Under the pieces are notes generated by a model. It searched no databases, was not told the origin of the DNA, and worked only from the letters and a program-made list of their open reading frames with translations. A stretch of 64,000 bases of DNA, taken from NCBI GenBank assembly GCA_965247375.1, contig CBDFHU010000025.1, forward strand, positions 18,974 to 82,973. The letters are read 5' to 3'. The DNA comes from Arsenicibacter sp. (GTDB lineage Bacteria > Bacteroidota > Bacteroidia > Cytophagales > Spirosomataceae). Shown one piece after another: positions 1 to 21,511 of the stretch; position 1 is the first letter of the stretch, and each line of letters opens with the position of its first letter. Made by a program: the position numbers and the translations under genes.

Positions 1-2289
1 TTCGCCCTGTACCCGTACTGTTTCCAGATATTTCGGTACGATCAGGATATCCCCTTCTTCAACAATCATGTCTTCGGCCGATCCAGGATTAGCCAGTGCT
101 TTACCGAGGTTGATGCCGATCGGTTCGGGTGTACCTGCAACCAGCTCAGTCCGCTGAACAGCTGTATTTCGGGCTGCATCGGCCAGTTCATCGATTACCC
201 GCTGGCGCTGTGCCAGCTGTTCGGCTGATTCTTTTACAGGGCGTTGCAGGGTGGCACCTTCCTTGTAGGCATAGGGCGACAAACCACCGGCCTGCTTAAT
301 CAGGTCGGAAATACGGATATCTTTGCGGTCAATCGGATACTGACCTGGCATAATTACTTCTCCTTCTACACGGGCAAAGGTTTGAGCTGCATAGTTTGGC
401 GAACGGCGTACAATGACCTGATCAAACGGATAGAGGAAAAAGCGGCTGTCGTCACTGTCGAGCGTCAGGTCACGGTTAACCTGGAAGCGGAACACATCGG
501 CCAACTGCGCCGTTTTCGACGAAACATCCACATCTTTTTTCCGGCGAACAACCTCCACCTGTGCAGAGGCTGCTGATTCTTTAAGGCCACCTGCCTTCAG
601 AATCAGATCCTCCAGTGTCATATTCGATACGTAGATCACATCACCGGTTGGCTGATTTACTTCGCCCTCAATCGAGATAGTAGCACTTTCAGCCATGCTG
701 AAGCGGGAGGTAATAACCACCTGATCTTCCCGTTTCAGGACAATATCTTCGGCTTTGCCATTGATAATATCGGCCAGGTTCAGGGATATATTCTCTACCG
801 ACAGGTCTTCGCGGGTACGCAGAATCTGGATACGGCCGGTAAACGCATCGCCGCGCAGCCCTTCCGCATTCTGAATCAACGTACGGAGCGTCGGGTTCTG
901 ATCCAGCGAGTAACGTCCCGGACGATAGACCGCCCCTTCGATGTTCACCTGATTCTCAAAGCGGTCCAGCAGCTGTTCGATTGTTACAACATCGCCGTCC
1001 TGTAGCTCAAATTTAGCAAACTGATCGGCCGTAACGTCGATGACCTTGCGTTCGCGGTCGGTCAGACGCGTTACCTTAATGCGGTTTTTATACGCATTTG
1101 CGGCAAAACCACCGGCATAATACAGTATTTTATCCAGTGTTTCGTTGGGCAGAAGCTCGAACAGGTTGTTACGTTTAACCGTACCCGTTACCTCTACGCG
1201 CGACTGGTAAGTGCCGATCCGGATGATATCACCGTCCTGTAACCGTACGTCATTACGTTGAACGCCGTTGAGCAGGTAATCATATAAGTCCAGCGTAACC
1301 AGCACTTTACCGCCACGGATGACGTTGACTTTCCGGTAAGAACCCAGTTCATTCGGGCCACCGGCCTGATAAATGGCATTGGTAGCTGTAGCCAGCGATG
1401 AGACCGGATACGTGCCCGGGCGAATGGCCTCACCAAGGATAGACACCCGGATGCTGCGCAGATCGGCCAGAGTCAGGTCGAGAAATGTATTTGGCCGTGA
1501 ACCATTGTAGCTTTTCAGACCGACAAATTTCTGAGACAGCCGGTCCCGGATACGGATTTTGGCTTGTTCGACCGATAAACCGGCTATCGAGACCGGACCA
1601 AGGCCGGTGAGCTTACCGAGAAACACGGTTCCGTCGGGCGATACAGTCTGGCTGAAATCGGCTTCAGTATAGCCGTACATGAGTATATTCAGCTTATCGC
1701 CGGGGCCCAGCACATAGTTCTGCGGCGTCGCCACATTGATATTTGGCTGAAAAGCAGAGGCCAGGTCCGGGTTGTTGAAAACGGAGCTGCCGAACAGCTT
1801 CCGGCGGATTTCCAGTTTTTCGCGGGTCCGGGCGGCTTCGTAGCCTTCCTCGATTACTTCTTCGTTACTTTTCTGAACCTGTTTCTCATCGATTTCGTCT
1901 GCTTTGTCCGTAGACTGTAGTGTACCGTTTCCATTCTGGGTCTGGCCGTTCTGCGTACTTTGTCCGGTAGCCGAACGCCCCTGCTGGTTAGGTTGGTTCA
2001 CCCCGCCGGTACGTCCTTGCTGGGATTGGGTAGCGCCCGGCTGCCCTTTTCCTTGCTGGGATGTTCCCGGCTGAGTACTGCCGGGTATCGATGTACCGGC
2101 AGGGGTAGTGCCGCCCGGCAAACCACCGGGAATGGCAACCGGCCCGGGCGTCACCTGGGCGTTTGTGAATGAAACAGGGATCAGTGCGGCTGCCAGCAGC
2201 AGGGCGCAGGCTGATTTAAGGCTTCGTTTAAACAATTGCTTCGTACTTGTTTTTACCTCGGAGAAGTGAAGACACCGAAAATTTTGCAT
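1..2289 (-). CDS. SLBB-domain polysaccharide export protein (KpsD/Wza-like), 3' end runs off the window
   Basis: Manual translation of the minus strand from ATG at 2289 (absent from the ORF track because it has no stop in the window). Signal peptide, Q/G/T-rich linker, then ATPQNYVLGPGDKLNI (Poly_export) and repeated SLBB-type motifs ending ...ETVRVQGE at the window edge. Confidence 0.88.
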   Translation of the reverse strand, partial: MQNFRCLHFSEVKTSTKQLFKRSLKSACALLLAAALIPVSFTNAQVTPGPVAIPGGLPGGTTPAGTSIPGSTQPGTSQQGKGQPGATQSQQGRTGGVNQPNQQGRSATGQSTQNGQTQNGNGTLQSTDKADEIDEKQVQKSNEEVIEEGYEAARTREKLEIRRKLFGSSVFNNPDLASAFQPNINVATPQNYVLGPGDKLNILMYGYTEADFSQTVSPDGTVFLGKLTGLGPVSIAGLSVEQAKIRIRDRLSQKFVGLKSYNGSRPNTFLDLTLADLRSIRVSILGEAIRPGTYPVSSLATATNAIYQAGGPNELGSYRKVNVIRGGKVLVTLDLYDYLLNGVQRNDVRLQDGDIIRIGTYQSRVEVTGTVKRNNLFELLPNETLDKILYYAGGFAANAYKNRIKVTRLTDRERKVIDVTADQFAKFELQDGDVVTIEQLLDRFENQVNIEGAVYRPGRYSLDQNPTLRTLIQNAEGLRGDAFTGRIQILRTREDLSVENISLNLADIINGKAEDIVLKREDQVVITSRFSMAESATISIEGEVNQPTGDVIYVSNMTLEDLILKAGGLKESAASAQVEVVRRKKDVDVSSKTAQLADVFRFQVNRDLTLDSDDSRFFLYPFDQVIVRRSPNYAAQTFARVEGEVIMPGQYPIDRKDIRISDLIKQAGGLSPYAYKEGATLQRPVKESAEQLAQRQRVIDELADAARNTAVQRTELVAGTPEPIGINLGKALANPGSAEDMIVEEGDILIVPKYLETVRVQGE

Positions 2290-7568: not shown

Positions 7569-8420
7569 TTACCCAAATGATTTTTTAGGAACGGTGTTCC
7601 AGTCAATCCGGCGGTCGGCTTCGGCCAGATCAATGAATTCAAAGTTTTTAAGCAGCCGGTGCAGCTTCGGCCAGCAACCCTTCAGCCCGTAGTACGATTT
7701 GAACCGGCGGGCCATGCCCAGATCCTCAATGACCGGTTGCGTATGGTCAAAATCGCGCGGATGGAAATAGGTCATCACATACGACGATTTCTGCGTGAAC
7801 CGGTGGATAACCGGATAGGGAAGTAACCGGAAATAGCCACCGCCAGAGAAAATGACATCCTGCCCGGCAATGCTTACCGTATTGATCGGAAACTCCTTAA
7901 GCGGTGCACCGTTGATGTCAATCAGACTTGGTGCGGTTATGCCGAATGCCGCGTCGCCGCCATGTGACCGCCGCGCTGAAAACACTGAGCAATCCATGGT
8001 AATACCATTTTCGAGCAGGATCGGGAATACCCAGCGGTTCAGGAATTTGATCGAAAAGCCAGGTGCACGGTATGCCCGCACGGTTTTCCCCGTTACATCC
8101 TGCAACGACTTTATCGACCGTTGCAGGTCTTCCGTAAATTCAGCGGGCGTCTGCTCGTAAGCCAGCTGATGGGCATAGGAGTGGGTAGCCACTTCATAGC
8201 CCTCTTCATCGATTCGTTTAATTACGTCAGGATATTTTTCGGCAACCCAACCCAGGCAGAAGAATGTCGCCCGTGAGTTGGTTTCATCAAGCAGCTGGAA
8301 AATCAGGTCCATATTCCGGTGAATCCGCGACTCATACCGGCTCCATTCAGCTTCGGTACGGGTTGAGGCATTGTCCAGAATGTGAAACCACTCTTCGATA
8401 TCAAACGTCAGGATATTCAT
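7569..8420 (-). CDS. Polysaccharide deacetylase family protein (NodB-type, DUF3473 C-terminus)
   Basis: LTFDIEEWFH, ATFFCLGW, HSYAH, YRAPGFS, GGGYFRLLP, YFHPRDFD. Confidence 0.9.
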   Translation of the reverse strand: MNILTFDIEEWFHILDNASTRTEAEWSRYESRIHRNMDLIFQLLDETNSRATFFCLGWVAEKYPDVIKRIDEEGYEVATHSYAHQLAYEQTPAEFTEDLQRSIKSLQDVTGKTVRAYRAPGFSIKFLNRWVFPILLENGITMDCSVFSARRSHGGDAAFGITAPSLIDINGAPLKEFPINTVSIAGQDVIFSGGGYFRLLPYPVIHRFTQKSSYVMTYFHPRDFDHTQPVIEDLGMARRFKSYYGLKGCWPKLHRLLKNFEFIDLAEADRRIDWNTVPKKSFG

Positions 8421-8471
8421 GTGTAGGAATTTGCACCGGACAGAATGGCTGTCTGATCCGGTGACGGAGCA

Positions 8472-9251
8472 TTAATAGAATTTTTTACCGGCGGCCTTAA
8501 ACGCCTGCACATCTTCCTTCGTCGGGAAGGTGAAGTACGTCATCTGTGAAGCATCATTTTCCTGAAGCTGATAATTGCCGGAATGAATTTTATCGATTGC
8601 TTCCAGAATGGCATCCATACCCATTTTTTTGGTCACGTGAATCAGCTCTTCCTGCGACATATTCCCGATTTCGACCGGATTCTGTACCAGAATCGGACCG
8701 CTGTCAATGCCTTCGTCGACAAAGAAAACGGATACGCCGGTGCGTTTTTCGTTGTGGCGTAATACCCAGAACGAGGGCATCAACCCCCGGTATTTCGGCA
8801 GGAGGGCCGTATGCAGGTTGATACAGCCGTGCGTGGCGGTATCCAGCAGTTTTTGCCGGAAAATCTGATTTCCGGCAATCGACACCAGCAGGTCAGGCTG
8901 ATAGGCTTTGATTTTGGCCAGATTTTCGTCTTTGTTGATATTCCCTTCTATCTGAATCAGCGGGATTTTAAAGCCTTCCAGCACCTTGCGGACATTGTTG
9001 CGCGGGTCGAGCTTTGACTTGACAAATTTTACGCCATACCGGATAAAGAAGGGCAGCCCGAAAATGTCGAGCGTCTTTTTCATCTTATCCGAAAAACTTT
9101 CCCGTTTTCCGAACGGCGACACATCGAAGACAACCGTAGCCACAACCTCTGCATATGGAGGCAGGTGCTTCACGAGGTAATCAATGTTGCGGGCCAGGTA
9201 AAACGGATCGTCCTGGGTTAGGAATACAAGGCGCATTTTTTTGTCGTTCAT
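8472..9251 (-). CDS. Sugar-nucleotide N-formyltransferase (formyl_trans_N domain)
   Basis: INLHTALLPKYRG...GVSVFFVDEGIDSGPIL. Lacks the C-terminal domain of Fmt and sits in a polysaccharide locus. Confidence 0.85.
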   Translation of the reverse strand: MNDKKMRLVFLTQDDPFYLARNIDYLVKHLPPYAEVVATVVFDVSPFGKRESFSDKMKKTLDIFGLPFFIRYGVKFVKSKLDPRNNVRKVLEGFKIPLIQIEGNINKDENLAKIKAYQPDLLVSIAGNQIFRQKLLDTATHGCINLHTALLPKYRGLMPSFWVLRHNEKRTGVSVFFVDEGIDSGPILVQNPVEIGNMSQEELIHVTKKMGMDAILEAIDKIHSGNYQLQENDASQMTYFTFPTKEDVQAFKAAGKKFY

Positions 9252-9275: not shown

Positions 9276-12113
9276 CTAAAATACCAGGATCTGCCGCCGG
9301 ATCAGTTGTCCGGAAGTAGTCCGCAGGCTGACTACATACTGGCCGGCAGGAACCTGACCGAGTTTAATGGTTAGTGTACGGACCGGCTTACTCTGCGACG
9401 AAGCAACAAGCCGGCCGTCAGCGGCATAGACATCCGCCCCCGTAAAGATAGGCTGATCATGTTCGACCTGCAAGAGCCGGTCTGTCTGTACTGGATTAGG
9501 GTATAGTCTGAGGCTGTTCGTCAGGTCTTCAACACCCAGAATGAGCGGCAATGACCGGGCAATGTTGCTGTAGGCAGAACCACCGGCACTGTTCACTGCC
9601 CGTACGCGGAACTGATACAGAGTGGCTTCTATAAGGCCGCTGCTGATGTAAGTAGTTGAGTTCGGAGCGACGGTCGCCACTTTCTGAAACTCGCCCGAAC
9701 CGGTACTTTGCTCAATCTCATAGCCGGTTTCGTTGAAGGCGTTGTCGGACCAGACCAGCGAAATGCTGGTCGGTGTAAAGGCACCGGCGGTCAGGTTCGC
9801 CGGAGCTGCCGGTAACGTAGCCGGTGTGGTAACGGTAAGCGTATTGCTGAAAGGGGATGCCCCGGCACTATTCACCGCCCTGACCCGGAACAGGTACGAT
9901 GTCGTTTCGGTCAGGCCCGTCAGCGACAGGGTAGTGCTGCCGGCCGGTAAGGCGGCAACCCGCGTAAAGGAATGGCCCGGCGACGCCTGCTCGACTTCAT
10001 AGCCGGTTTCGTTAAAGGCAATATCCTGCCAGCCCAGTGTCAGGCTGGTCGGGGCGGCTGCGAGTGTAGTCAGACTGGCTGGCGCCAACGGAGCGGAAAC
10101 CGGCGTTTTCACGGAAACAATGTTGCTGTAAGCCGACCCTCCGGCACTGTTGACGGCTCTGACGCGGAAGGAATAAGGGGTGTTTTCCATTAGCCCGACT
10201 GCCGTAAACGAGGTTGTGTTAGCGGCTGCTGCGGCTACTCGGGTAAAACTGTCGCCGCCCGTACTGATTTCAATCTCGTAGCCGGTTTCGTTGAACGCGC
10301 GGTCTGCCCAGGCGAGGCTAACGCTGTTAGATAAAACCGACGTGACTGTAAGGCTCTGAGGTTGAAGGGGGACCGATGCCGGCGTGGTTGCCGTTGCTGT
10401 GTTGGAATAAGCCGATGCACCGGCGCTGTTTGTCGCCCTGATCCGGAACGTAAAGCCGGTTTGTTCGGCCAGACCGGTTATCTGATAGATGTTGTTATTA
10501 GTCGGAATGGTACCAATCTGACGGAAAGACCCGTCCGGTTGCTGCTGCTCAATCTCAAAACCGGCTTCATTGTCGGCGTTATCCTGCCAGCTGAGAAGAA
10601 TACCGTTCGGGGAGATGGCCGAGGCCATAAGGTTACCCGGAGCGGCGGGTGGCGTAACGACGACCGGAGCGGCATCAATCGCCACTTTTGAGAAACTGAA
10701 TGCCCGCATGCCGCGGCTGTTTTTTAGATACGGACCCTGATAAAACGGTAGTTCTGCGGTGCTGTAATAGGCCGGCAGGTAGGTGACTGTCTTAGCCGTC
10801 TGTGGTGAAGTCAGGGTCAGAATAATCCGGTTGCCTTCGGCACGGCCACTCCTGACCAGCCCCGGTTGCTCGTCCAGGTAGATATAGTCAATCATCCGCC
10901 TGTTGACCTGATTGCCGGTTAGCGGATTATAGATGGTTGTATCCTGCGGCCAGACCATCTGCATATCATCGTCAAAGGTCAGCGTCAGCTCGTCGCGCCG
11001 GTCATTGAAGGCAATTTTTTTAATGTCCGGGGAGTTGATTTGCTGCGTGTCTGCCGAGCGGTAAATATCCCGGGCAATAAGCCGGAACTGCTCGAACGCC
11101 AGTTGCTGGTTAGCTCTCGGTTCATAATGCAGGCCATCGTACCCGACGGCACCAACGGTAGCAACGGCGGCAAGGTTCTGGAAAAGTGATGGGGTGCGCC
11201 GCTGAAAATCCCGTAAATCACCGGCACCGGCCACAGCAGGCGTCATGATGTTGATTTGCCCGATGTAAATTTTAGGACCCTGACCGTAGTCTTCCCGGAG
11301 CTGGTTGTAAAACTGCTGAAACTTTTCGGCATAGCCGGCGGGTTCACCCCCTGCTTCGTTTTCGCCCTGTTTATAAATAATAGCTTTTACCTTGTCGGCC
11401 ACACCGGCCCATTGGGCGCGGTAGAGTAAGCTGCCATAGTAATTACTGTAATCGGCATGATTGGAAGGTGTCCGGTTGCCGAGTTCCAGAATACTGGCTC
11501 CGCCGATGCCTCCGTTAATAACGAGCGTTGGAATGCCGTACTGCTGTAAAATATGCCGCTGGATTTCCATCCCAACCATGCCCACACTGCCAAATGGCTG
11601 ACGGGCGGGGTACCATTGCATCTCGGCCGGTATATTGGTAGAGCCATACGGGTAGGTTACATTCCGGAGCAGCCGGTCATCCAGCGGGTAATCGTCGAGA
11701 CCGGCAAGGCCGAGCGCGTTAGACTGACCATACAGAATGTAGACATCCCCGCAAACGATCCGTTTCCGTTCCGTCACCAGCACAGATTCATTGCCGCGAC
11801 GGACATATACCTGAAACGTATATTCGGCCGGCTCCGCCTGAATCGTGACGGGAATACGGAACTGACTGCCGCCGCCTTCAGAGATGGACTGGCTGGCTGA
11901 TTTCCAGAAATTCCCTTCTTTCAGCACAGATACCTCAATTTGCCGGAAGCCGCTGTCATTTACCTGGCCGCTGATTATCACCTCTGCCTGATTCTGATCA
12001 TTACGTGGATACAATTGCAAATCCTGCGGAAGCCGGGTGAAGGAGACCGAAGGCTGTGCCATGGCGGAAAAAGTCCCCGTTACCAGACACAGGAGAAGTA
12101 AAAGAGTACGCAT
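9276..12113 (-). CDS. T9SS-secreted SGNH/SASA (sialate O-acetylesterase-like) esterase with 4 FN3 domains
   Basis: Signal peptide, YGQSNALG, KQGENEA, DGLHY (intact Ser/Asp/His motifs), four FN3 repeats, and CTD LRLYPNPV...GQYVVSL. Confidence 0.85.
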   Translation of the reverse strand: MRTLLLLLCLVTGTFSAMAQPSVSFTRLPQDLQLYPRNDQNQAEVIISGQVNDSGFRQIEVSVLKEGNFWKSASQSISEGGGSQFRIPVTIQAEPAEYTFQVYVRRGNESVLVTERKRIVCGDVYILYGQSNALGLAGLDDYPLDDRLLRNVTYPYGSTNIPAEMQWYPARQPFGSVGMVGMEIQRHILQQYGIPTLVINGGIGGASILELGNRTPSNHADYSNYYGSLLYRAQWAGVADKVKAIIYKQGENEAGGEPAGYAEKFQQFYNQLREDYGQGPKIYIGQINIMTPAVAGAGDLRDFQRRTPSLFQNLAAVATVGAVGYDGLHYEPRANQQLAFEQFRLIARDIYRSADTQQINSPDIKKIAFNDRRDELTLTFDDDMQMVWPQDTTIYNPLTGNQVNRRMIDYIYLDEQPGLVRSGRAEGNRIILTLTSPQTAKTVTYLPAYYSTAELPFYQGPYLKNSRGMRAFSFSKVAIDAAPVVVTPPAAPGNLMASAISPNGILLSWQDNADNEAGFEIEQQQPDGSFRQIGTIPTNNNIYQITGLAEQTGFTFRIRATNSAGASAYSNTATATTPASVPLQPQSLTVTSVLSNSVSLAWADRAFNETGYEIEISTGGDSFTRVAAAAANTTSFTAVGLMENTPYSFRVRAVNSAGGSAYSNIVSVKTPVSAPLAPASLTTLAAAPTSLTLGWQDIAFNETGYEVEQASPGHSFTRVAALPAGSTTLSLTGLTETTSYLFRVRAVNSAGASPFSNTLTVTTPATLPAAPANLTAGAFTPTSISLVWSDNAFNETGYEIEQSTGSGEFQKVATVAPNSTTYISSGLIEATLYQFRVRAVNSAGGSAYSNIARSLPLILGVEDLTNSLRLYPNPVQTDRLLQVEHDQPIFTGADVYAADGRLVASSQSKPVRTLTIKLGQVPAGQYVVSLRTTSGQLIRRQILVF
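9550..10655 (-). repeat. Four tandem FN3 units with a 279-nt period
   Basis: TAGCCGGTTTCGTT at 9721, 10000 and 10279; degenerate copy at 10558. Confidence 0.85.
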
Positions 12114-14722: not shown

Positions 14723-15943
14723 ATGAACCTGGAATTACTCATCGCCTTTATCAGAAATAAGTTCAATGAAGAACTATTTACGATAGGCCTATACCAGTGC
14801 TTGCTGTCGTTCCTGGTTGCTTGTTTTGTCTCAATTATTTCGATTCCGGTTGTCATAAAAATTTCGGAACTGAAGTCGTTAATGGATAAACCAGGCGAGC
14901 GCCATTCACACTCAACCCCGACGCCGACATTTGGCGGTATTGCCATCTTCGCTGCGGTATTGATCAGTTATTTTCTCTGGCCGAGCATTGACCAGACGGA
15001 TATCTACCGGACCAACCTGTCGATTGTCGGCATGACTATCCTTTTCTTTGTTGGCATTAAGGATGACCTGGTCAATGTGGATCCGAATAAGAAAATCTTT
15101 TTTCAGGTATTATCGGCCATGATCCTGATTTTCTTCGGTGATCTGAAGGTGGATTACCTGTACGGAATAATGGGTTTTCACCATATTGAGCAGTTAATCA
15201 GTGTATTACTCACTTGTTTTATCTTTATTGCCCTCACCAATGCCATTAACCTGATTGATGGTATCGACGGATTAGCCGGCGGTATTGCGACCATTGCCAG
15301 TGCGACATTCGGCGGGTGGTTTCTGCTGACGAATCACTTTGCAATGGCGTGTCTGGCCTTTTCCCTGTCAGGAGCTCTGATTGGATTTCTGCGGTTTAAC
15401 TTCTCGAAAACCAGCAAAATCTTCATGGGTGATACCGGTTCGCTGATTCTGGGTTTTATGCTATCGTTCTTTGCCGTCCGGTTTATCAATCTGAACGCAT
15501 CGTACCGCTTCGAGCCGACTGCCTTTTTTAACGCCCCCATCATTGCCATTGTGATTCTGATCGTACCGATTTTTGATACGCTGCGGGTATTTCTGGTGCG
15601 TATTCTGGCCGGCCGTTCGCCGTTCGTGGCAGACCGGAACCACATGCACCATATTCTGCTGGACAACGGATTAAGCCATGCGCAGGCGACTATGTTTCTG
15701 TGTGCGGCTTCGCTGTTTAATACGGTTTTGTTTTTCATGCTGCACCGGAATATTTCAAATACACAGTCGCTGCTGGTGCTGGCCGCCTTGTTTATGTTAT
15801 ATATGCTGATCAGTTTTGTGCTGAAAATGCGGGCGTTGTTTATTTCGACGCATCCCCGCCGTCGCCGGGCCGTACTTCGCCGTGAGTTCACAAGTGCATT
15901 TACCGGCCGGGAAGGTACTAAACGATTGATTGACTGGCTGTAA
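14723..15943 (+). CDS. Undecaprenyl-phosphate GlcNAc-1-phosphate transferase (WecA/TagO, MraY-like)
   Basis: TPTFGGIAIF, GIKDD, NAINLIDGIDGLA, IFMGDTGS, ADRNHMHH, about 11 TM segments. Confidence 0.9.
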   Translation: MNLELLIAFIRNKFNEELFTIGLYQCLLSFLVACFVSIISIPVVIKISELKSLMDKPGERHSHSTPTPTFGGIAIFAAVLISYFLWPSIDQTDIYRTNLSIVGMTILFFVGIKDDLVNVDPNKKIFFQVLSAMILIFFGDLKVDYLYGIMGFHHIEQLISVLLTCFIFIALTNAINLIDGIDGLAGGIATIASATFGGWFLLTNHFAMACLAFSLSGALIGFLRFNFSKTSKIFMGDTGSLILGFMLSFFAVRFINLNASYRFEPTAFFNAPIIAIVILIVPIFDTLRVFLVRILAGRSPFVADRNHMHHILLDNGLSHAQATMFLCAASLFNTVLFFMLHRNISNTQSLLVLAALFMLYMLISFVLKMRALFISTHPRRRRAVLRREFTSAFTGREGTKRLIDWL

Positions 15944-15971
15944 GCGTTTTTCCATACTGAAATTACCTCCG

Positions 15972-15999
15972 GGCAGCTTTGAAAGAAGCTGCCTTTTTT
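15972..15999 (+). terminator. Intrinsic terminator
   Basis: GGCAGCTT-TGAAAG-AAGCTGCC-TTTTTT. Confidence 0.8.
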
Positions 16000-16103: not shown

Positions 16104-16111
16104 TAATTTTG
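16104..16111 (+). promoter_or_regulatory. -7 element for the large T9SS protein
   Basis: TAATTTTG, 45 nt upstream of the ATG. Confidence 0.6.
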
Positions 16112-16156: not shown

Positions 16157-19100
16157 ATGCATCGTACCAGTATCATTTTACTTTATTTTATGATTTTACG
16201 TATAAAAGTAAGTTTGAGCGTAATCACGAAGCTAGGCATCCTTATTGGTCTGCTTTTCAGTAGCTACATCACATTTGCTCAGACAACTACACCAAACCTG
16301 ACCCTGACTCCAACCGCCATCACTGGTTTTACGACAGAACTCAGTAAGCCGTCTGCCCCCAAAGCCTATACACTACAGGCGGCAAATTTGCGGGATACGC
16401 TTCGATTAATTGCGTCAGCCGGCTATGAAATCAGTCCGAACGGCTCATTTTATAGCAATACGCTCAGTCTGCCGCCGTCGACGGAGTCCGCGATCATTAT
16501 CGTTCGTATGACCGGGACCGGCTTATTTACCGGGGCCAATAATGGCTCCATCAATCACATAAGTACGGGATTACTGACACGGACGCTCGGGCTATCGGGA
16601 ACGGTAAGCGCGTTCACCGGTATCTCAACCATAGCCGATGCAAGAATGATGGTTGTCGGAAAAGAGGCGCTGATTCAGGGCACCGTGACGGTCAACCGCC
16701 AGTTTGATAACGGACAAGTGATGTATATTCAGGATAAAACCGGTGGGATAGCCTTGTTTGTACCGGCTGCCAACGCGGCAATATACACTCAGGTACAGAC
16801 CGGCATTCAGACAGGGAATGAAATCAATGTACGTGGAATACTCGGGTATCAGAAAGGCGCTGTCGGCCTTACGTCAATCTCAAGCCTTTCGGTTGTGAAT
16901 GCCACAACGGCCCTTCCGGCCCCGAAACTGATCACAACCGGACAGATGGGCGATCCGGATAACCTCGGCCTGCTGGTGAAAATTGACAGTGTTGCCATTA
17001 CTGATACCAGACCGGCATTGGTGGCCGGAACAGACTTTACATTCCGTGATACGACCAATACAACAGGACGGTTCCGGATCCGTACCGGCGTCAATGATGT
17101 AATTAATTCGCTGAAGCCTGCCCGCCGGTTTGCGCTGACCGGTATTCTGGACGGATATGATCTGGATGACGAAACCGAAAACGGGTCATTGGGAAACCGG
17201 CTTTTTCCGCGTTCGCAGAGAGATATTGAGGGAACGACGGAGCTGGCTGTATCAGACGGAGGCGTTCCGAACCGTGAACAGACTCTTGAACTGGCTACCT
17301 GGAATGTGGACAGTCTTGGTGCGGTGCTTCAGGGACCGGTATTCAGCGGGCTAAACGATGCCCTGCAACGAACGTATGCCGCTAACATTATCCGCTATCT
17401 GGGAGCAGATGTACTGGTATTGCCGGGAGTGTCAAATCCGTCTGCCCTGACGGCAATTGCGGCGCAGGTCAGCAGTGTTACCAGTAAGACATACGTAGCC
17501 GTCTGCCCGCAGAGCAGCTATTATACCGGCGAAAATCCACGTGTATGTTTTCTGTACAAATCAGATCTTTTTACAGCGCCCCCCGCTGTATCAGTCGTAT
17601 CAACGAGCCTGGTAACCGCCGATTGGGATGGCGGTCGTTTTCCTGTTGTCCTGACCGGAAATGCAAAGTTAAACGGGCTGACCCGGCGGATAAACATTGT
17701 CGGGATTCATGCGCATGAAGGTAGTACAATAACTGATTTTTCGGTCCGGCAGCGGGCCGCGTCTCAGCTGAAAGCCTACCTGGACAGCCGATCGACGGAA
17801 GTATTTCTGGTGACCGGCGAATTTGGTGATGATATGATCCGGTCGGTAGCTGCTGCGTCAAGTCCGTCACCATATGAGGGCCTCCTGAGTGGTACAAACA
17901 GCCTTTCTGCGGTAACAAGATCATTATCAGCCAGCCGGCTGACTACATCCCTGTCGGCCGATATGATGACCAGTCATGTCCTGATCTCAGACGAGCTATT
18001 TGCCAATTTTATTTTGGGAACAGCATCCACTTTGTCGCCGGATACCATAGTGCCGGATTATCTGCCGAATGCTGCGGACTGGGGTATGAGTGTTTCTGAT
18101 TATCTACCGGTAATGGCACGGTTCAGCCTGGCAACACCGGGGTCACTGACAGCAACGCTGGTCGGAACATCGACCATATGTGGCGAGAATACGGCCCCGC
18201 TGATGGTGAATATCGTCGGTGGCGTTGCTCCATATCAACTGGTAATCAACAACGGTACCAGTTCGACAACGATTACAAACTATACCAGCGGCGCGAAAAT
18301 TCCGCTTAGTCTGACCAGTACAACCAGTTACAGCCTGGTATCGGTGACCGATGCGCTGAGCATTACGGCCGGCACGTTGTCGGGAACGGCTACTGTGACG
18401 GTCATTCCCAACGTGCGGCCGGTCAGTGTTACCATCAGTCCGGCCAGCACCTCGTATTGTCAGGGCAAGACTGTTTCGCTGAGTGCAGTTGTCAACAGCG
18501 GGCAATTGCCGTTACGATATCAGTGGAATTCCGGTGAAGCAACACCGGTGATTTCGGCCAGCGCAACCGGTACGTATCAGCTTACCGTCATCGACGGACT
18601 GGGTTGTACCGGGATTGCTTCCATGAGTACAACCGTAAATACGATTCCGGATTTATCAACATTCGGCGCCTCAGTCTCGGCCTTATGTACGGCTACCAGC
18701 CAGGCAACGACGTTTACGGCGAATATCGGTAATCTGGCCGCACCGGCAAGTTATACGCTTGGTAGCCCGACCGGAACGGTATCAGGCACAATTGTGGATA
18801 CAGGCGAGTATGCTCAGTTCATGTCCATTACCAGAACTGCCGTGTATACACTAACTGTCGGTACTCCGCAGGGCTGTACGGCTTCGGCGACGCAGAGTGT
18901 TTCCCTGAACGCAACCCCATCCATTTTCAGCTTTGCGGCAACCCCGAGCTGTGCCGGGCGTCCGTCAACCTTTACGGCCCTGGTCAGCGGACTGACAGGA
19001 GGCTACAGTTATACGCTGACGGACGGTTCATCGAATATTTTTGGTACCGGCACGGCGGCTACGCCGTTCAATGCCGTGTTAGTACCGGCTGCGACGAGTA

Positions 19101-21511
19101 CGTACAGTCTGATTGTGGCTAATCAGAATTGTACGGCACAATCCAGTGCATTGGTACAGGTAGGAACGGCGGTACCCGTTGCAACACTGAGCACATCAAC
19201 CAGTGTGTTAACCTGCTCATTGCCATCTGCTACGTTATTTGCCAGTGGTGGCGTGAATTACGCATTTTCTCCGATCAACGGCAGTACATTAACCAATACA
19301 ACCGGTACGATTTCCGTTAATCAGCCAGGCACCTATACGGTACGGGTAACCGATGTGTATGGCTGTACTGCTTCGGCCAGTACGTTTGTGATTGCCAATA
19401 ATACCGTTCCGAATGCCACTCTGACGGCTACAAACACGGTCTTTAACTGTACCAACCGAACCAGTACGCTCATTGCAACAGGCGGCGATCTGTATTCATT
19501 CTACAATCCGGCCGGTGTTCTGCTGCAAACCAGCACACTAAATACCTTTGCCCTGAATACGGCCTTGGGTTACACCGGCGGAACTTACAGTGTAGTGGTA
19601 TCGACGGCCAGTGGTTGTACCGCAGCGGCAACGGCAACCATTACCTCCAATAATGCTGTACCAACGGTAGGCCTGACTGTCAGCGGACAAATTACGTGTT
19701 CCCAGCCCAAGGTACAGCTTGCAGTAACGCATACTGAAACCGCGACCAGTTATAAGTTCACCAACGCTAACGTACCGGGTTATGTTGCCTTTGTTTCGCC
19801 GCCAACCAATATTCTGGATGTAACAACCGCCGGATTTTATCAGGTCGAAGTAACATTTGCAAACGGATGTGTGGGCGTAGCGACGGTTCAGGTTGCAGCG
19901 AGTACGTCTGTACCGGGCGTAACTCTGAGTTCAAGCGGGCAACTTTCCTGTTCAAATCCGACGGTGAGACTATCCGCTGTACACAGTGAAGCGGCTACGC
20001 GTTACGAATTTACATCACCATCAGGCGTAACAACATTGGTAACTCCACCACTGAATTCTGTAACTGCGAATACGACGGGAAGCTATTCAGTAAAGGTAGT
20101 TTTCCAGAGTGGGTGTACCGCAACGGCCTCAGTTAATGTTACGCAAAATATTGATAGTCCGACAGTAGCACTCCAGGTAAACGGGCAATTATCATGTGCC
20201 CAGAGTAGAGTAACATTAACGGCTATTCATACCGCAGCAGCCCGGTTATATACATTTCGTGGTCCCGCCGGTTTTTTAGTAAATACAACGAATAATTTTG
20301 TAGAGACGACTGTAGAGGGGAAATACACGGTAGACGTTGCTTTTGTTGGGGGCTGCTCGGCAAGTAGTGAATTAACCGAGGTCAAAAGTTTATCAGGAAC
20401 GCTTTCTGCAATAATCTCCGGTAACACAACGGTTTGTTCCGGCGCAAGCACTATTTTAACGGTTATAACTTCTGATGGTGCTACTGTCCGCTGGTCAACC
20501 GGCGGCGAAACGGCTAGAAGTATCAGCTATCGACCGGGAGGAACTACACCTGTCTCCGTTACAGTGACACAAGGTAGTTGTGTCGCCGTTGCCAGTACTA
20601 CTGTGTTTGTCACTGCTTGCGCCCCGCTTGTACTACTTGCTCCTACGTATAGCTGTAGTTCCGGTCAATTCTTCTTCCGGTCAACAGGAGGTGATGGTAC
20701 TCCGGTTGAATACTCAGCCGTAGGCATATCCGGGTGGACGACAAATGTGGGGCCGTATGTTGTTAAACCATTTGAAGATGCAGGATCGTTTGTTCTACAG
20801 GCAAGAACTACAGCTAATCCGAGTAATGTGATAACGTATATCTGGGACTGGAAAGCGGCTTGCACTTCTACTCCGCCATCCAGCACAACTACCACACCAA
20901 AGACAAGCATAGATACAGAAACCACAGGTAATAGTTGTTCCAGTCCGGCAGAAACCCTCGGGAGTCCGCTGGCACTTCTGACACCAACATACAACTGTCA
21001 GACAGGGGCCGTTCAATTCAGAACGACAGGTGGTACCGGCACAAAGCTGGAATACATGTCAATCGGTATTACCGGCTGGACTACCAACTGCCAGTCGGCG
21101 ATTGATGATCCGGCGATAGTCACCTTAATCCGGAATCAAAGTTCTCAGGTCAGCCCGTATACCTTGCGGGCAAGGCAGGACGGAAATACGGTCACGCTTA
21201 CGTGGGATCCACGCACAGTCTGCGCAGCAGGCGGACGCGAAGGTTCCGGCATTGCGGATTTTGTCAATGTGAAGGTGCTCGGTAACCCGACACTCAGTGA
21301 GGAAGTAGAGGTGGAGCTGGAAAGCACAGGCAAAAATGCGGTCAGCCTGTACCTGACTGATGCGCAGGGCAATGTGCGCTTTGACGAACAGATTCAGAAA
21401 CCGGCACCGGTCGAGCGCAAGACGATCCGGTTGGGCCGTCAGGCCGGCATGTACCTGCTTCTGGTAAAGTCGGGTTCAGCCGTAAAAGTGGTGAAGATTC
21501 TCCGGCAATAA
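16157..21511 (+). CDS. Large T9SS-secreted protein: Ig-like + OB-fold region + degenerate EEP (DNase I-like) domain + Cys-containing Ig-like repeats + CTD
   Basis: Signal peptide; MYIQDKTGGIALF and GLLVKIDSV (OB-type); ELATWN...GIHA...SDYLPV (EEP fold); repeated Y-x-V-x-V-x3-GC-T-A units; two LLxPTYxC..G...GGxG..EY..GI.GWTTN repeats; CTD VKVLGNP...GMYLLLV. Confidence 0.82.
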   Translation: MHRTSIILLYFMILRIKVSLSVITKLGILIGLLFSSYITFAQTTTPNLTLTPTAITGFTTELSKPSAPKAYTLQAANLRDTLRLIASAGYEISPNGSFYSNTLSLPPSTESAIIIVRMTGTGLFTGANNGSINHISTGLLTRTLGLSGTVSAFTGISTIADARMMVVGKEALIQGTVTVNRQFDNGQVMYIQDKTGGIALFVPAANAAIYTQVQTGIQTGNEINVRGILGYQKGAVGLTSISSLSVVNATTALPAPKLITTGQMGDPDNLGLLVKIDSVAITDTRPALVAGTDFTFRDTTNTTGRFRIRTGVNDVINSLKPARRFALTGILDGYDLDDETENGSLGNRLFPRSQRDIEGTTELAVSDGGVPNREQTLELATWNVDSLGAVLQGPVFSGLNDALQRTYAANIIRYLGADVLVLPGVSNPSALTAIAAQVSSVTSKTYVAVCPQSSYYTGENPRVCFLYKSDLFTAPPAVSVVSTSLVTADWDGGRFPVVLTGNAKLNGLTRRINIVGIHAHEGSTITDFSVRQRAASQLKAYLDSRSTEVFLVTGEFGDDMIRSVAAASSPSPYEGLLSGTNSLSAVTRSLSASRLTTSLSADMMTSHVLISDELFANFILGTASTLSPDTIVPDYLPNAADWGMSVSDYLPVMARFSLATPGSLTATLVGTSTICGENTAPLMVNIVGGVAPYQLVINNGTSSTTITNYTSGAKIPLSLTSTTSYSLVSVTDALSITAGTLSGTATVTVIPNVRPVSVTISPASTSYCQGKTVSLSAVVNSGQLPLRYQWNSGEATPVISASATGTYQLTVIDGLGCTGIASMSTTVNTIPDLSTFGASVSALCTATSQATTFTANIGNLAAPASYTLGSPTGTVSGTIVDTGEYAQFMSITRTAVYTLTVGTPQGCTASATQSVSLNATPSIFSFAATPSCAGRPSTFTALVSGLTGGYSYTLTDGSSNIFGTGTAATPFNAVLVPAATSTYSLIVANQNCTAQSSALVQVGTAVPVATLSTSTSVLTCSLPSATLFASGGVNYAFSPINGSTLTNTTGTISVNQPGTYTVRVTDVYGCTASASTFVIANNTVPNATLTATNTVFNCTNRTSTLIATGGDLYSFYNPAGVLLQTSTLNTFALNTALGYTGGTYSVVVSTASGCTAAATATITSNNAVPTVGLTVSGQITCSQPKVQLAVTHTETATSYKFTNANVPGYVAFVSPPTNILDVTTAGFYQVEVTFANGCVGVATVQVAASTSVPGVTLSSSGQLSCSNPTVRLSAVHSEAATRYEFTSPSGVTTLVTPPLNSVTANTTGSYSVKVVFQSGCTATASVNVTQNIDSPTVALQVNGQLSCAQSRVTLTAIHTAAARLYTFRGPAGFLVNTTNNFVETTVEGKYTVDVAFVGGCSASSELTEVKSLSGTLSAIISGNTTVCSGASTILTVITSDGATVRWSTGGETARSISYRPGGTTPVSVTVTQGSCVAVASTTVFVTACAPLVLLAPTYSCSSGQFFFRSTGGDGTPVEYSAVGISGWTTNVGPYVVKPFEDAGSFVLQARTTANPSNVITYIWDWKAACTSTPPSSTTTTPKTSIDTETTGNSCSSPAETLGSPLALLTPTYNCQTGAVQFRTTGGTGTKLEYMSIGITGWTTNCQSAIDDPAIVTLIRNQSSQVSPYTLRARQDGNTVTLTWDPRTVCAAGGREGSGIADFVNVKVLGNPTLSEEVEVELESTGKNAVSLYLTDAQGNVRFDEQIQKPAPVERKTIRLGRQAGMYLLLVKSGSAVKVVKILRQ

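Follow-up and report, generated by a model that had tools for sequence, protein, structure and literature searches.

Can an extracellular DNase lose the residues with which it cuts DNA and still be kept by selection at the cell surface, and if so, what would its head be kept for? The question is raised by a 64,000-nucleotide stretch of an Arsenicibacter sp. genome (GenBank assembly GCA_965247375.1, contig CBDFHU010000025.1, forward-strand positions 18,974 to 82,973), hereafter the window, in which this soil bacterium encodes a surface protein of 1784 amino acids (aa), P0001. A sequence-only reading of the window had described positions 16157-18130 as an EEP (DNase-I-like) domain with a dismantled active site, and had proposed that an inactive head of this kind, mounted on a long stalk and secreted by the type IX system (T9SS), could tether cells to extracellular DNA (eDNA). 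We found that this range is the 5' third of a single open reading frame (ORF), here called the giant gene, on the (+) strand. Comparison with homologues makes it highly probable that the head is catalytically dead and has been maintained as a binder, and we consider below what it may bind.

Active site of the EEP head

The motif losses described in the sequence-only reading were confirmed at their positions, the three codons of the terminal motif being read directly (Table 1). A word-indexed search returned three full-length orthologues with head identities of 82% (P0002), 75% (P0003, Arsenicibacter rosenii BLX24_01495) and 60% (P0004), together with two distant proteins bearing a true PF03372 domain. 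All four orthologues, the query included, read NV(T)DS, L(P/Q/T/N)(G/S), IHAHEG, GEFGDD, (S/T)H and (D/G/E)Y, whereas the distant proteins (P0005, P0006) read NLEW/F, VVE/VQE, IHAKAN, GDFNDD, (I/L)DH(V/I)VIS and (T/S)DH. DNase I equivalences were obtained by aligning the family profile to Protein Data Bank (PDB) entries (human DNase1L3 7kiu, E 3.6e-6; DNase I), and those of Xds via PMC6746945, in which E532, D711, N713, D787 and H837 are metal-binding or active-site residues and mutation of D787 or H837 impairs DNase activity. D648, equivalent to DNase I D251, varies among orthologues (D/G/E). Residues kept in the query are N383 (DNase I N7), H518 (DNase I H134) and, within a GR.P motif, R494, which corresponds to the DNA-phosphate contact R111 of DNase I.

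A profile built from the domain alignment matched 1689 proteins at E<=1e-3, 618 of them at E<=1e-30, among 1.84 billion representatives. We read twelve pocket columns in the best ~150 of the 1689, and within that set all but three showed N..E..H..D.N.D..DH..DH, those three being partly changed, while the combination N-D-G-H-H-E-G-D-S-H-D-Y occurred in the query clade only. Conservation among active members is complete (100%) at the Glu, at the Asp of DH and at the final His, and is 99% at the Asp and Asn of GDFN. A six-frame search of 41 related genomes found the full catalytic set retained in 17 other homologues and the dismantled orthologues limited to three genomes of the genus Arsenicibacter. 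Among these 17 are two paralogues encoded by the same genome as the window: G000:C42, with 1156 aa, and G000:C3, which a contig end truncates. Because the ~150 representatives and the 17 genomic relatives keep the set, the losses in the query are no chance of a divergent sequence. The query does not carry the conserved EEP catalytic set (Asn, Glu, His/Tyr, Asp-x-Asn, Asp, Asp-His), and all characterised EEP activities known to us (nuclease, inositol phosphatase, sphingomyelinase, deadenylase) rely on the Glu, Asp/Asn, Asp and His of that set; since every such activity depends on the residues lost here, the domain is very probably catalytically dead.

The fold itself appears intact. A direct match to PF03372 reached only 13.3 bits (E 0.073; gathering cut-off 24.5); at E<=0.001 this family was matched by 0/3 pseudo-clade members and 12/12 active homologues, and phmmer of the query head against PDB sequences gave chance matches only, so that a family profile was needed. 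Because direct family matches fall below their cut-offs, the assignments of both the EEP domain and the T9SS tail rest on homologues and structure. An AlphaFold2 model of aa 369-661, computed from a 98-sequence alignment in which active homologues dominate, was confident (predicted local distance difference test score, pLDDT, 92; predicted template modelling score, pTM, 0.92) and has the four-layer alpha/beta sandwich of the DNase I/APE1 type. Its Foldseek matches in the PDB were DNase I, EEPD1, nocturnin and TDP2, besides EEP proteins of Bacteroides, at E values from 1e-13 to 1e-11; the target TM-score reached 0.76, for DNase I. Of the checks proposed in the sequence-only reading, the PF03372 alignment thus gave no direct match above cut-off, but the EEP identity and the loss of its metal-binding and catalytic residues were upheld by homologue columns, PDB mapping and the predicted structure. 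Within the clade, 73% of the family-conserved scaffold positions are invariant, among alleles only 58-81% identical.

The retained pocket invites the alternative that the enzyme was remodelled, its pocket binding another metal or substrate and catalysing another reaction. Nine of the twelve pocket residues are invariant in the clade (N383, D385, H518, H520, E555, G557, D558, H607 and Y649), and eight of these, all but G557, speak for such a change, being held in alleles that can be only 58% identical; H520 and Y649 are moreover gains relative to the family, which has K/N and H there, and the ratio of nonsynonymous to synonymous substitution (dN/dS) is about 0.09. The remaining three former site positions vary among alleles (G424/S, S606/T, D648/G/E), however, the characterised EEP activities as generally known all use residues lost here, and the domain is 2-3 times less constrained than the active paralogue, to the same degree as non-catalytic immunoglobulin-like (Ig-like) domains. 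We therefore regard remodelling as improbable, and return to a dead domain kept for another function.

Descent and selection

The four orthologues grouped with 100% support in a maximum-likelihood tree of 76 EEP domains, and the stem leading to them measures 1.64 changes per site, against a median of 0.24 for terminal branches. This clade nests among active enzymes, beside P0039 and P0051 (96% support). P0039 (1574 aa, intact site), the active protein nearest to the query, aligns to query aa 44-1115 and has the same domain order, namely Ig, DUF5689, EEP, a stalk of Cys-paired Ig repeats and a C-terminal sorting domain (CTD). Because this active relative has the same stalk layout, the stalk is, on the phylogeny, older than the loss of catalysis; for the same reason we rejected a common origin of the stalk and the inactive site. 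The stalk proposed in the sequence-only reading is present, but it is no novelty tied to the loss.

By descent, as judged from these alignments, the query belongs to an uncharacterised Bacteroidota family of T9SS-secreted DUF5689-EEP nucleases, represented by P0039 and by the paralogue on G000:C42 (L015:2257-5727:-). It shares with them the head order Ig, DUF5689/OB (oligonucleotide/oligosaccharide-binding), EEP, at a head identity of 28-34%, and its clade is nested inside theirs; the Cys-paired Ig stalk is common to the query and P0039, and the paired repeats and CTD to the query and L015:2257-5727:-. Unlike the active members, the query clade has lost the Glu, Asn, Asp and His needed for catalysis, with Glu standing for Asp in GDFN; it also lacks their ~240-aa N-terminal domain and evolves several times faster.

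For comparisons in which synonymous divergence (dS) was not saturated, the pairwise Nei-Gojobori dN/dS of the EEP domain came to 0.07-0.10; values for the rest of the protein were similar (0.07-0.12 throughout). For the same genome pairs, the active paralogue's EEP domain is 94-96% identical with dN/dS 0.03-0.04, against 58-76% and about 0.09 for the pseudo-EEP domain; from this difference, constraint on the latter has relaxed and is now that of a structural or binding domain. These values also bear on simple decay towards a pseudogene, which the loss of five catalytic residues, the long stem branch and evolution faster than that of the active paralogue might suggest. The frame is uninterrupted over 5.3 kb in four lineages with synonymous divergence above 1, dN/dS is low throughout, scaffold residues and a confident predicted fold are retained, and synteny is conserved. 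On dN/dS and the intact frames we rejected decay, which is most improbable. The sequence-only reading had named orthologues with intact motifs, together with relaxed selection here, as the mark of decay; all four orthologues are dismantled, none has intact motifs, and the gene is under purifying selection. Active homologues, lost catalytic residues and purifying selection, by which a pseudoenzyme is operationally recognised, all appear from sequence to be present.

A second degenerate site was noticed in another genus. The 1057-aa ORF of L023 (G010:C16:252000-257000) has N->K, E->D, H->Q and D->Y in its EEP site, reading WK for WN, LQD for (V/L)(E/Q)E, GIQ for GIH and TYH for SDH, and keeps GDFNDD and DH. 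It may be an independent pseudo-nuclease. Because its substitutions differ and it sits on its own long branch (1.54), EEP-site degeneration has probably occurred more than once in the DUF5689-EEP family.

Domains, export and locus

The domains around the EEP head are listed in Table 1. The N-terminal Ig-like domain, for which no Pfam family was matched, occupies the position of the LTD in Xds and ExeM. The OB + EEP layout of the sequence-only reading is supported, with the OB part matching DUF5689 (PF18942) below cut-off in the query and, at E<=0.001, in 15/15 aligned homologues, of which exactly the 12 active ones also match PF03372. The active paralogue in the same genome passes both cut-offs (DUF5689 34.9 bits) and has in addition a sub-threshold OB-fold (tRNA_anti-codon) match. 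In a model of aa 150-661 (pLDDT 82) a b1-b2-b3-helix-b4-b5 unit precedes a second unit of five strands, together a predicted OB-like tandem barrel; in a fold search with this model the EEP part dominated the matches. The DUF5689 hallmark QD.TGG is invariant in all alleles.

Table 1. Features of the giant gene and its upstream region, in window coordinates. DNase I and Xds numbers denote equivalent residues
Feature	Residues (aa)	Position (nt)	Strand	Basis or remark
Giant gene P0001, 1784-aa surface protein		16157..21511	+	Open reading frame; full-length orthologues with same neighbours
Terminator-like hairpin, then T-run		15971..15994	+	10-bp stem, 5 GC pairs, tail TTTTTATTTC
Promoter-like box TAATTTTG		16104..16111	+	Sequence read; ~45 nt upstream of giant-gene ATG
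Signal-peptide-like N-terminus, hydrophobic stretch ending ...TFAQ		16157..16282	+	Read from translation; conserved in orthologues
N-terminal Ig-like beta-sandwich domain	45-155	16289..16621	+	Segment matches many tandem copies in relatives
DUF5689-type tandem beta-barrel (OB-like) module	156-368	16622..17260	+	Pfam match aa 167-334
DNase-I-like EEP domain, dismantled site	369-661	17261..18139	+	Homologue alignments, fold model
LVLPG	420-424	17414-17428	+	Corresponds to VVE/VQE in P0005, P0006
G424 replacing metal-binding Glu (DNase I E39; Xds E532)	424	17426..17428	+	S in one allele
IHAHEG	517-522		+	Corresponds to IHAKAN in P0005, P0006
GEFGDD	554-559	from 17816	+	Corresponds to GDFNDD in P0005, P0006
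E555-F-G557 replacing D-F-N (DNase I D168/N170; Xds D711/N713)	555-557	17819..17827	+	
TSHVLIS	605-611		+	Corresponds to IDHVVIS in P0005, P0006
S606 replacing Asp (DNase I D212; Xds D787)	606	17972..17974	+	T in one allele
SDY (TCT GAT TAT)	647-649	18095-18103	+	Corresponds to TDH/SDH in P0005, P0006
Y649 (TAT) replacing catalytic His (DNase I H252; Xds H837)	649	18101..18103	+	Invariant, 4/4 alleles
Stalk, about ten tandem ~83-aa Ig-like repeats, conserved Cys pair in each	662-1475	18140..20581	+	Cys periodicity, aligned repeat motif
Two ~95-aa repeats with Ser/Thr/Pro linker		20582..21256	+	PTYxC.(S/T)G..(F/Q)FR(S/T)TGG.GT..EY...GI(S/T)GWTTN
T9SS type-A C-terminal sorting domain (predicted)	1701-1784	21257..21508	+	Just under family cut-off

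The stalk repeats were evident from Cys periodicity and aligned segments and were not reported by self-BLAST; Pfam gave only sub-threshold Ig-like/PKD matches there. The paired ~95-aa repeat, which no Pfam or NCBIfam family matched, has the consensus P.Y.C.(S/T)G...F..(S/T)GG.G...EY..(I/V)G(I/V)..W.(S/T)N across proteins and precedes the CTD in the query and the active paralogue; a third T9SS protein, L015:5805-6740:-, whose gene adjoins that of the active paralogue, carries it as well. The T9SS secretion proposed earlier is supported in part: the tail of the query scores below cut-off, but its last 310 aa are homologous to the tail of L015:2257-5727:- (34% identity, E 2e-50), the CTD of which passes TIGR04183 at 29.2 bits. 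Because of this homology and because SprA is encoded in the window's genome, T9SS export of the 1784-aa protein is likely. The SprA match (TIGR04189, G000:C55:16-5991, (-) strand) is split over several frames, with three in-frame TGA in one piece, which is probably an error of the draft assembly or metagenome-assembled genome and not a broken T9SS.

On the same strand, upstream of the giant gene, lie genes for a family 2 glycosyltransferase (GT2), a hexapeptide acyltransferase, a second GT2 and a WecA-like GT4; farther upstream, on the opposite strand, are a T9SS protein, a formyltransferase and a DUF3473 deacetylase, and a Wza-like exporter is encoded at 1-2313. Other neighbours are 6-phosphogluconolactonase and an aldehyde dehydrogenase, and gene order around the giant gene is identical in orthologous loci. 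The gene had been placed next to an exopolysaccharide operon, and it does adjoin this glycosyltransferase cluster, but a terminator-like hairpin lies between it and the WecA-like GT4 gene (stop at 15943). The box TAATTTTG fits the Bacteroidota -7 promoter consensus TAnnTTTG and is a predicted element. From hairpin and box together the giant gene is probably transcribed as its own unit, apart from the cluster; given the hairpin, co-transcription with the cluster is unlikely.

Several further observations concern neighbours and annotation. The opposite-strand T9SS protein (9276-12113, (-)) comprises an SASA esterase, four fn3 domains and a CTD; between species it falls to 70-84% nucleotide identity against about 90% in its flanks (dS about 1.1 vs about 0.5), and between the assemblies P2 and P4, described below, it is 97-98% identical. 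The formyltransferase and deacetylase (7569-9251) have no proper counterpart in contig L025 of G001 (best ORFs 34% and 26%), because this 19-kb contig ends just upstream and not because of a biological difference. The public A. rosenii protein BLX24_01495 (P0003, 1620 aa) begins 161 residues inside an open 1781-aa frame (G002:C1, L024:10613 onwards) that opens with a signal-peptide-like N-terminus as in the other orthologues; its annotated start is probably too far downstream.

Allelic divergence and the ligand of the head

The giant gene was compared with the alleles of two assemblies, P2 and P4 (L001:10001-15394 and L002:7132-12507). Between the window and either of these, flanking proteins are 96-99% identical (dS 0.3-0.7), and nucleotide identity drops from about 90% to 58-83% over the giant gene. 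Between P2 and P4, where the contrast is sharpest, every flanking gene is 97-100% identical. Within the giant gene identity is 57-65% over the head and the distal part of the stalk, 84-89% over its proximal part and again 98% from shortly ahead of the CTD onwards; the divergence has sharp edges, one in the intergenic region upstream and one shortly ahead of the CTD, and dS is mosaic (CTD 0.05, head >2). By this pattern the heads are sharp-edged ancient alleles exchanged by recombination, and the P2/P4 difference suggests that recombination replaced one allele by another at this surface-protein locus. Such patterns are typical of exposed surface proteins under frequency-dependent selection. Because all alleles carry the dismantled site, the site loss is, from these sequences, older than the alleles.

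This divergence suggests another use for a dead head, as a polymorphic surface module for recognition whose ligand is not DNA (a partner cell surface, polysaccharide or protein) or, in a variant of the same explanation, mainly as a surface structure recognised by phages or predators, with frequency-dependent selection acting and recombination swapping old alleles. The fall from flanks to head between P2 and P4, its sharp edges, the same dip against the window, the mosaic dS, and a nonsynonymous divergence many times that of the active paralogue (given below) with dN/dS still about 0.1 all agree with it, as does the finding that the neighbouring T9SS SASA-fn3 protein is likewise a divergence hot spot between species. 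Conservation of QD.TGG and of the EEP scaffold and pocket in all alleles argues the other way, suggesting a common conserved ligand site, and we know of no DUF5689 ligand other than nucleic acid. A likeness to Myxococcus TraA, which has a variable head, a Cys-rich repeat stalk and a C-terminal sorting tag, is one of architecture only, and the sample is four alleles. We hold this explanation, the foremost rival to DNA binding, to be possible but doubtful in either form; head hypervariability nevertheless appears to point to a polymorphic recognition or target surface at least as much as to a universal ligand such as DNA.

Several known systems can be compared with the query. Xds of Vibrio cholerae, ExeM, NucH and the streptococcal SpnA, SsnA and SWAN share an Ig-like domain (LTD position), OB and EEP parts on an extracellular or surface-anchored protein, and Xds needs both its OB and its EEP part for activity (PMC6746945). 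They are active enzymes, whereas the query has all five Xds residues substituted, and its anchoring is probably by T9SS and not by sortase or the type II secretion system. By sequence the query resembles these nucleases without being one of them, because its NF033681 (ExeM_NucH_DNase) score is 16.6 bits against a cut-off of 300, over model positions 1-86 (the OB part) only, and because it lacks the catalytic set. All surface OB + EEP proteins described to our knowledge are active enzymes.

Another comparison is with DUF5689 proteins that have no enzyme attached. DdbD of Bacteroides thetaiotaomicron is a proposed double-stranded DNA binder with a p202 HIN-like fold (10.1101/2025.03.18.642099), and RA0C_RS04920 of Riemerella anatipestifer is a DUF5689 protein essential for natural transformation (PMC8459023). 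Both present a non-catalytic DUF5689 module at the cell surface, as proposed for the query. They are, however, paired with a TonB-dependent transporter and nucleases in their loci, where the query has no such neighbour, and in the query the DUF5689 module shares one chain with a dead EEP domain and a long stalk; a genome search found no DdbD-like gene in the window's genome. Ssd1 (RNase II family), Cas12k and FAAP24 have likewise kept a nuclease fold, lost catalytic residues and been reused, under purifying selection, as nucleic-acid binders, and unlike the query are intracellular and of other folds. In the RNase II family pseudonucleases have repeated origins (PMC8097288). The open-access literature searched yielded such intracellular pseudonucleases of other folds and many active surface nucleases, and no extracellular bacterial EEP pseudonuclease.

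We propose that the protein descends from a family of type-IX-secreted, stalk-mounted DNases composed of Ig, DUF5689/OB, DNase-I-like EEP, Cys-paired Ig repeats and a T9SS tail, and that in the ancestor of the genus Arsenicibacter one copy was stripped of the Glu that binds Mg, of the Asp-x-Asn pair, of the Asp that orients the His and of the catalytic His itself, while keeping the fold. The head would no longer hydrolyse phosphodiesters and would act as a binding module ~35-40 nm from the outer membrane. Its likeliest ligand would be double-stranded nucleic acid, held by the tandem OB unit of DUF5689, with the remnant DNase groove and its kept R494 possibly contributing, so that DNA would be captured or tethered uncut. 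Nucleic acid is preferred because the DUF5689 hallmarks are kept, because enzyme-free DUF5689 proteins are implicated in DNA capture at the surface, and because the R111 equivalent is kept. By this analogy DNA is a plausible ligand, which we put forward tentatively, and the full statement of a dead binder holding DNA is to be read with the same caution.

A number of observations weigh against a DNA-holding head. Loss of the metal ligands should also weaken phosphate contacts in the EEP groove. At -6 to -7 in net charge, the pseudo-EEP domain is less acidic than its active relatives (mean -13) yet not basic; charge was uninformative. Neither the head's dN, which exceeds that of the active paralogue 5-16-fold across the same pairs of genomes, nor hypervariability between strains whose flanks are 97-100% identical, is expected for a DNA-backbone ligand alone. 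The supporting family matches are below cut-off, both for DUF5689 at aa 167-334 (23.6 and 22.4 bits, E 5e-5 to 1e-4; cut-off 28.6) and for the CTD (TIGR04183 21.7 bits against 23; PF18962 13.6 against 27), and the window's genome has two DUF5689 proteins only, the query and the active nuclease. Among the neighbouring genes examined, no TonB-dependent receptor, DdbD-like or competence gene adjoins the giant gene, and the arrangement of Ddb-type loci, a DUF5689 protein beside a TonB-dependent transporter and nucleases, is absent at this locus. A combination of both ideas, in which the dead head would be a polymorphic antenna on a ~40-nm stalk, holding eDNA or a partner surface uncut, with several ancient alleles kept within one species by frequency-dependent selection (through phages, predators or kin discrimination, for instance), seems to us rather unlikely.

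Extracellular nucleases and eDNA play central parts in the structure of biofilms, in the scavenging of nutrients and in natural transformation. Pseudoenzymes are in themselves no rarity, and the clade described here is narrow, being confined to one genus and four alleles. One member of that genus, A. rosenii, is a harmless soil bacterium that can be cultured. A dismantled, selection-maintained clade of one genus together with active paralogues in the same genome is a clean natural experiment in the conversion of a surface enzyme into a binder, and its allelic hypervariability raises the question of what selects very different heads in otherwise identical strains. If the antenna were real, this would be the first described extracellular bacterial EEP pseudonuclease, and a TraA-like variable-head surface receptor in Bacteroidota.

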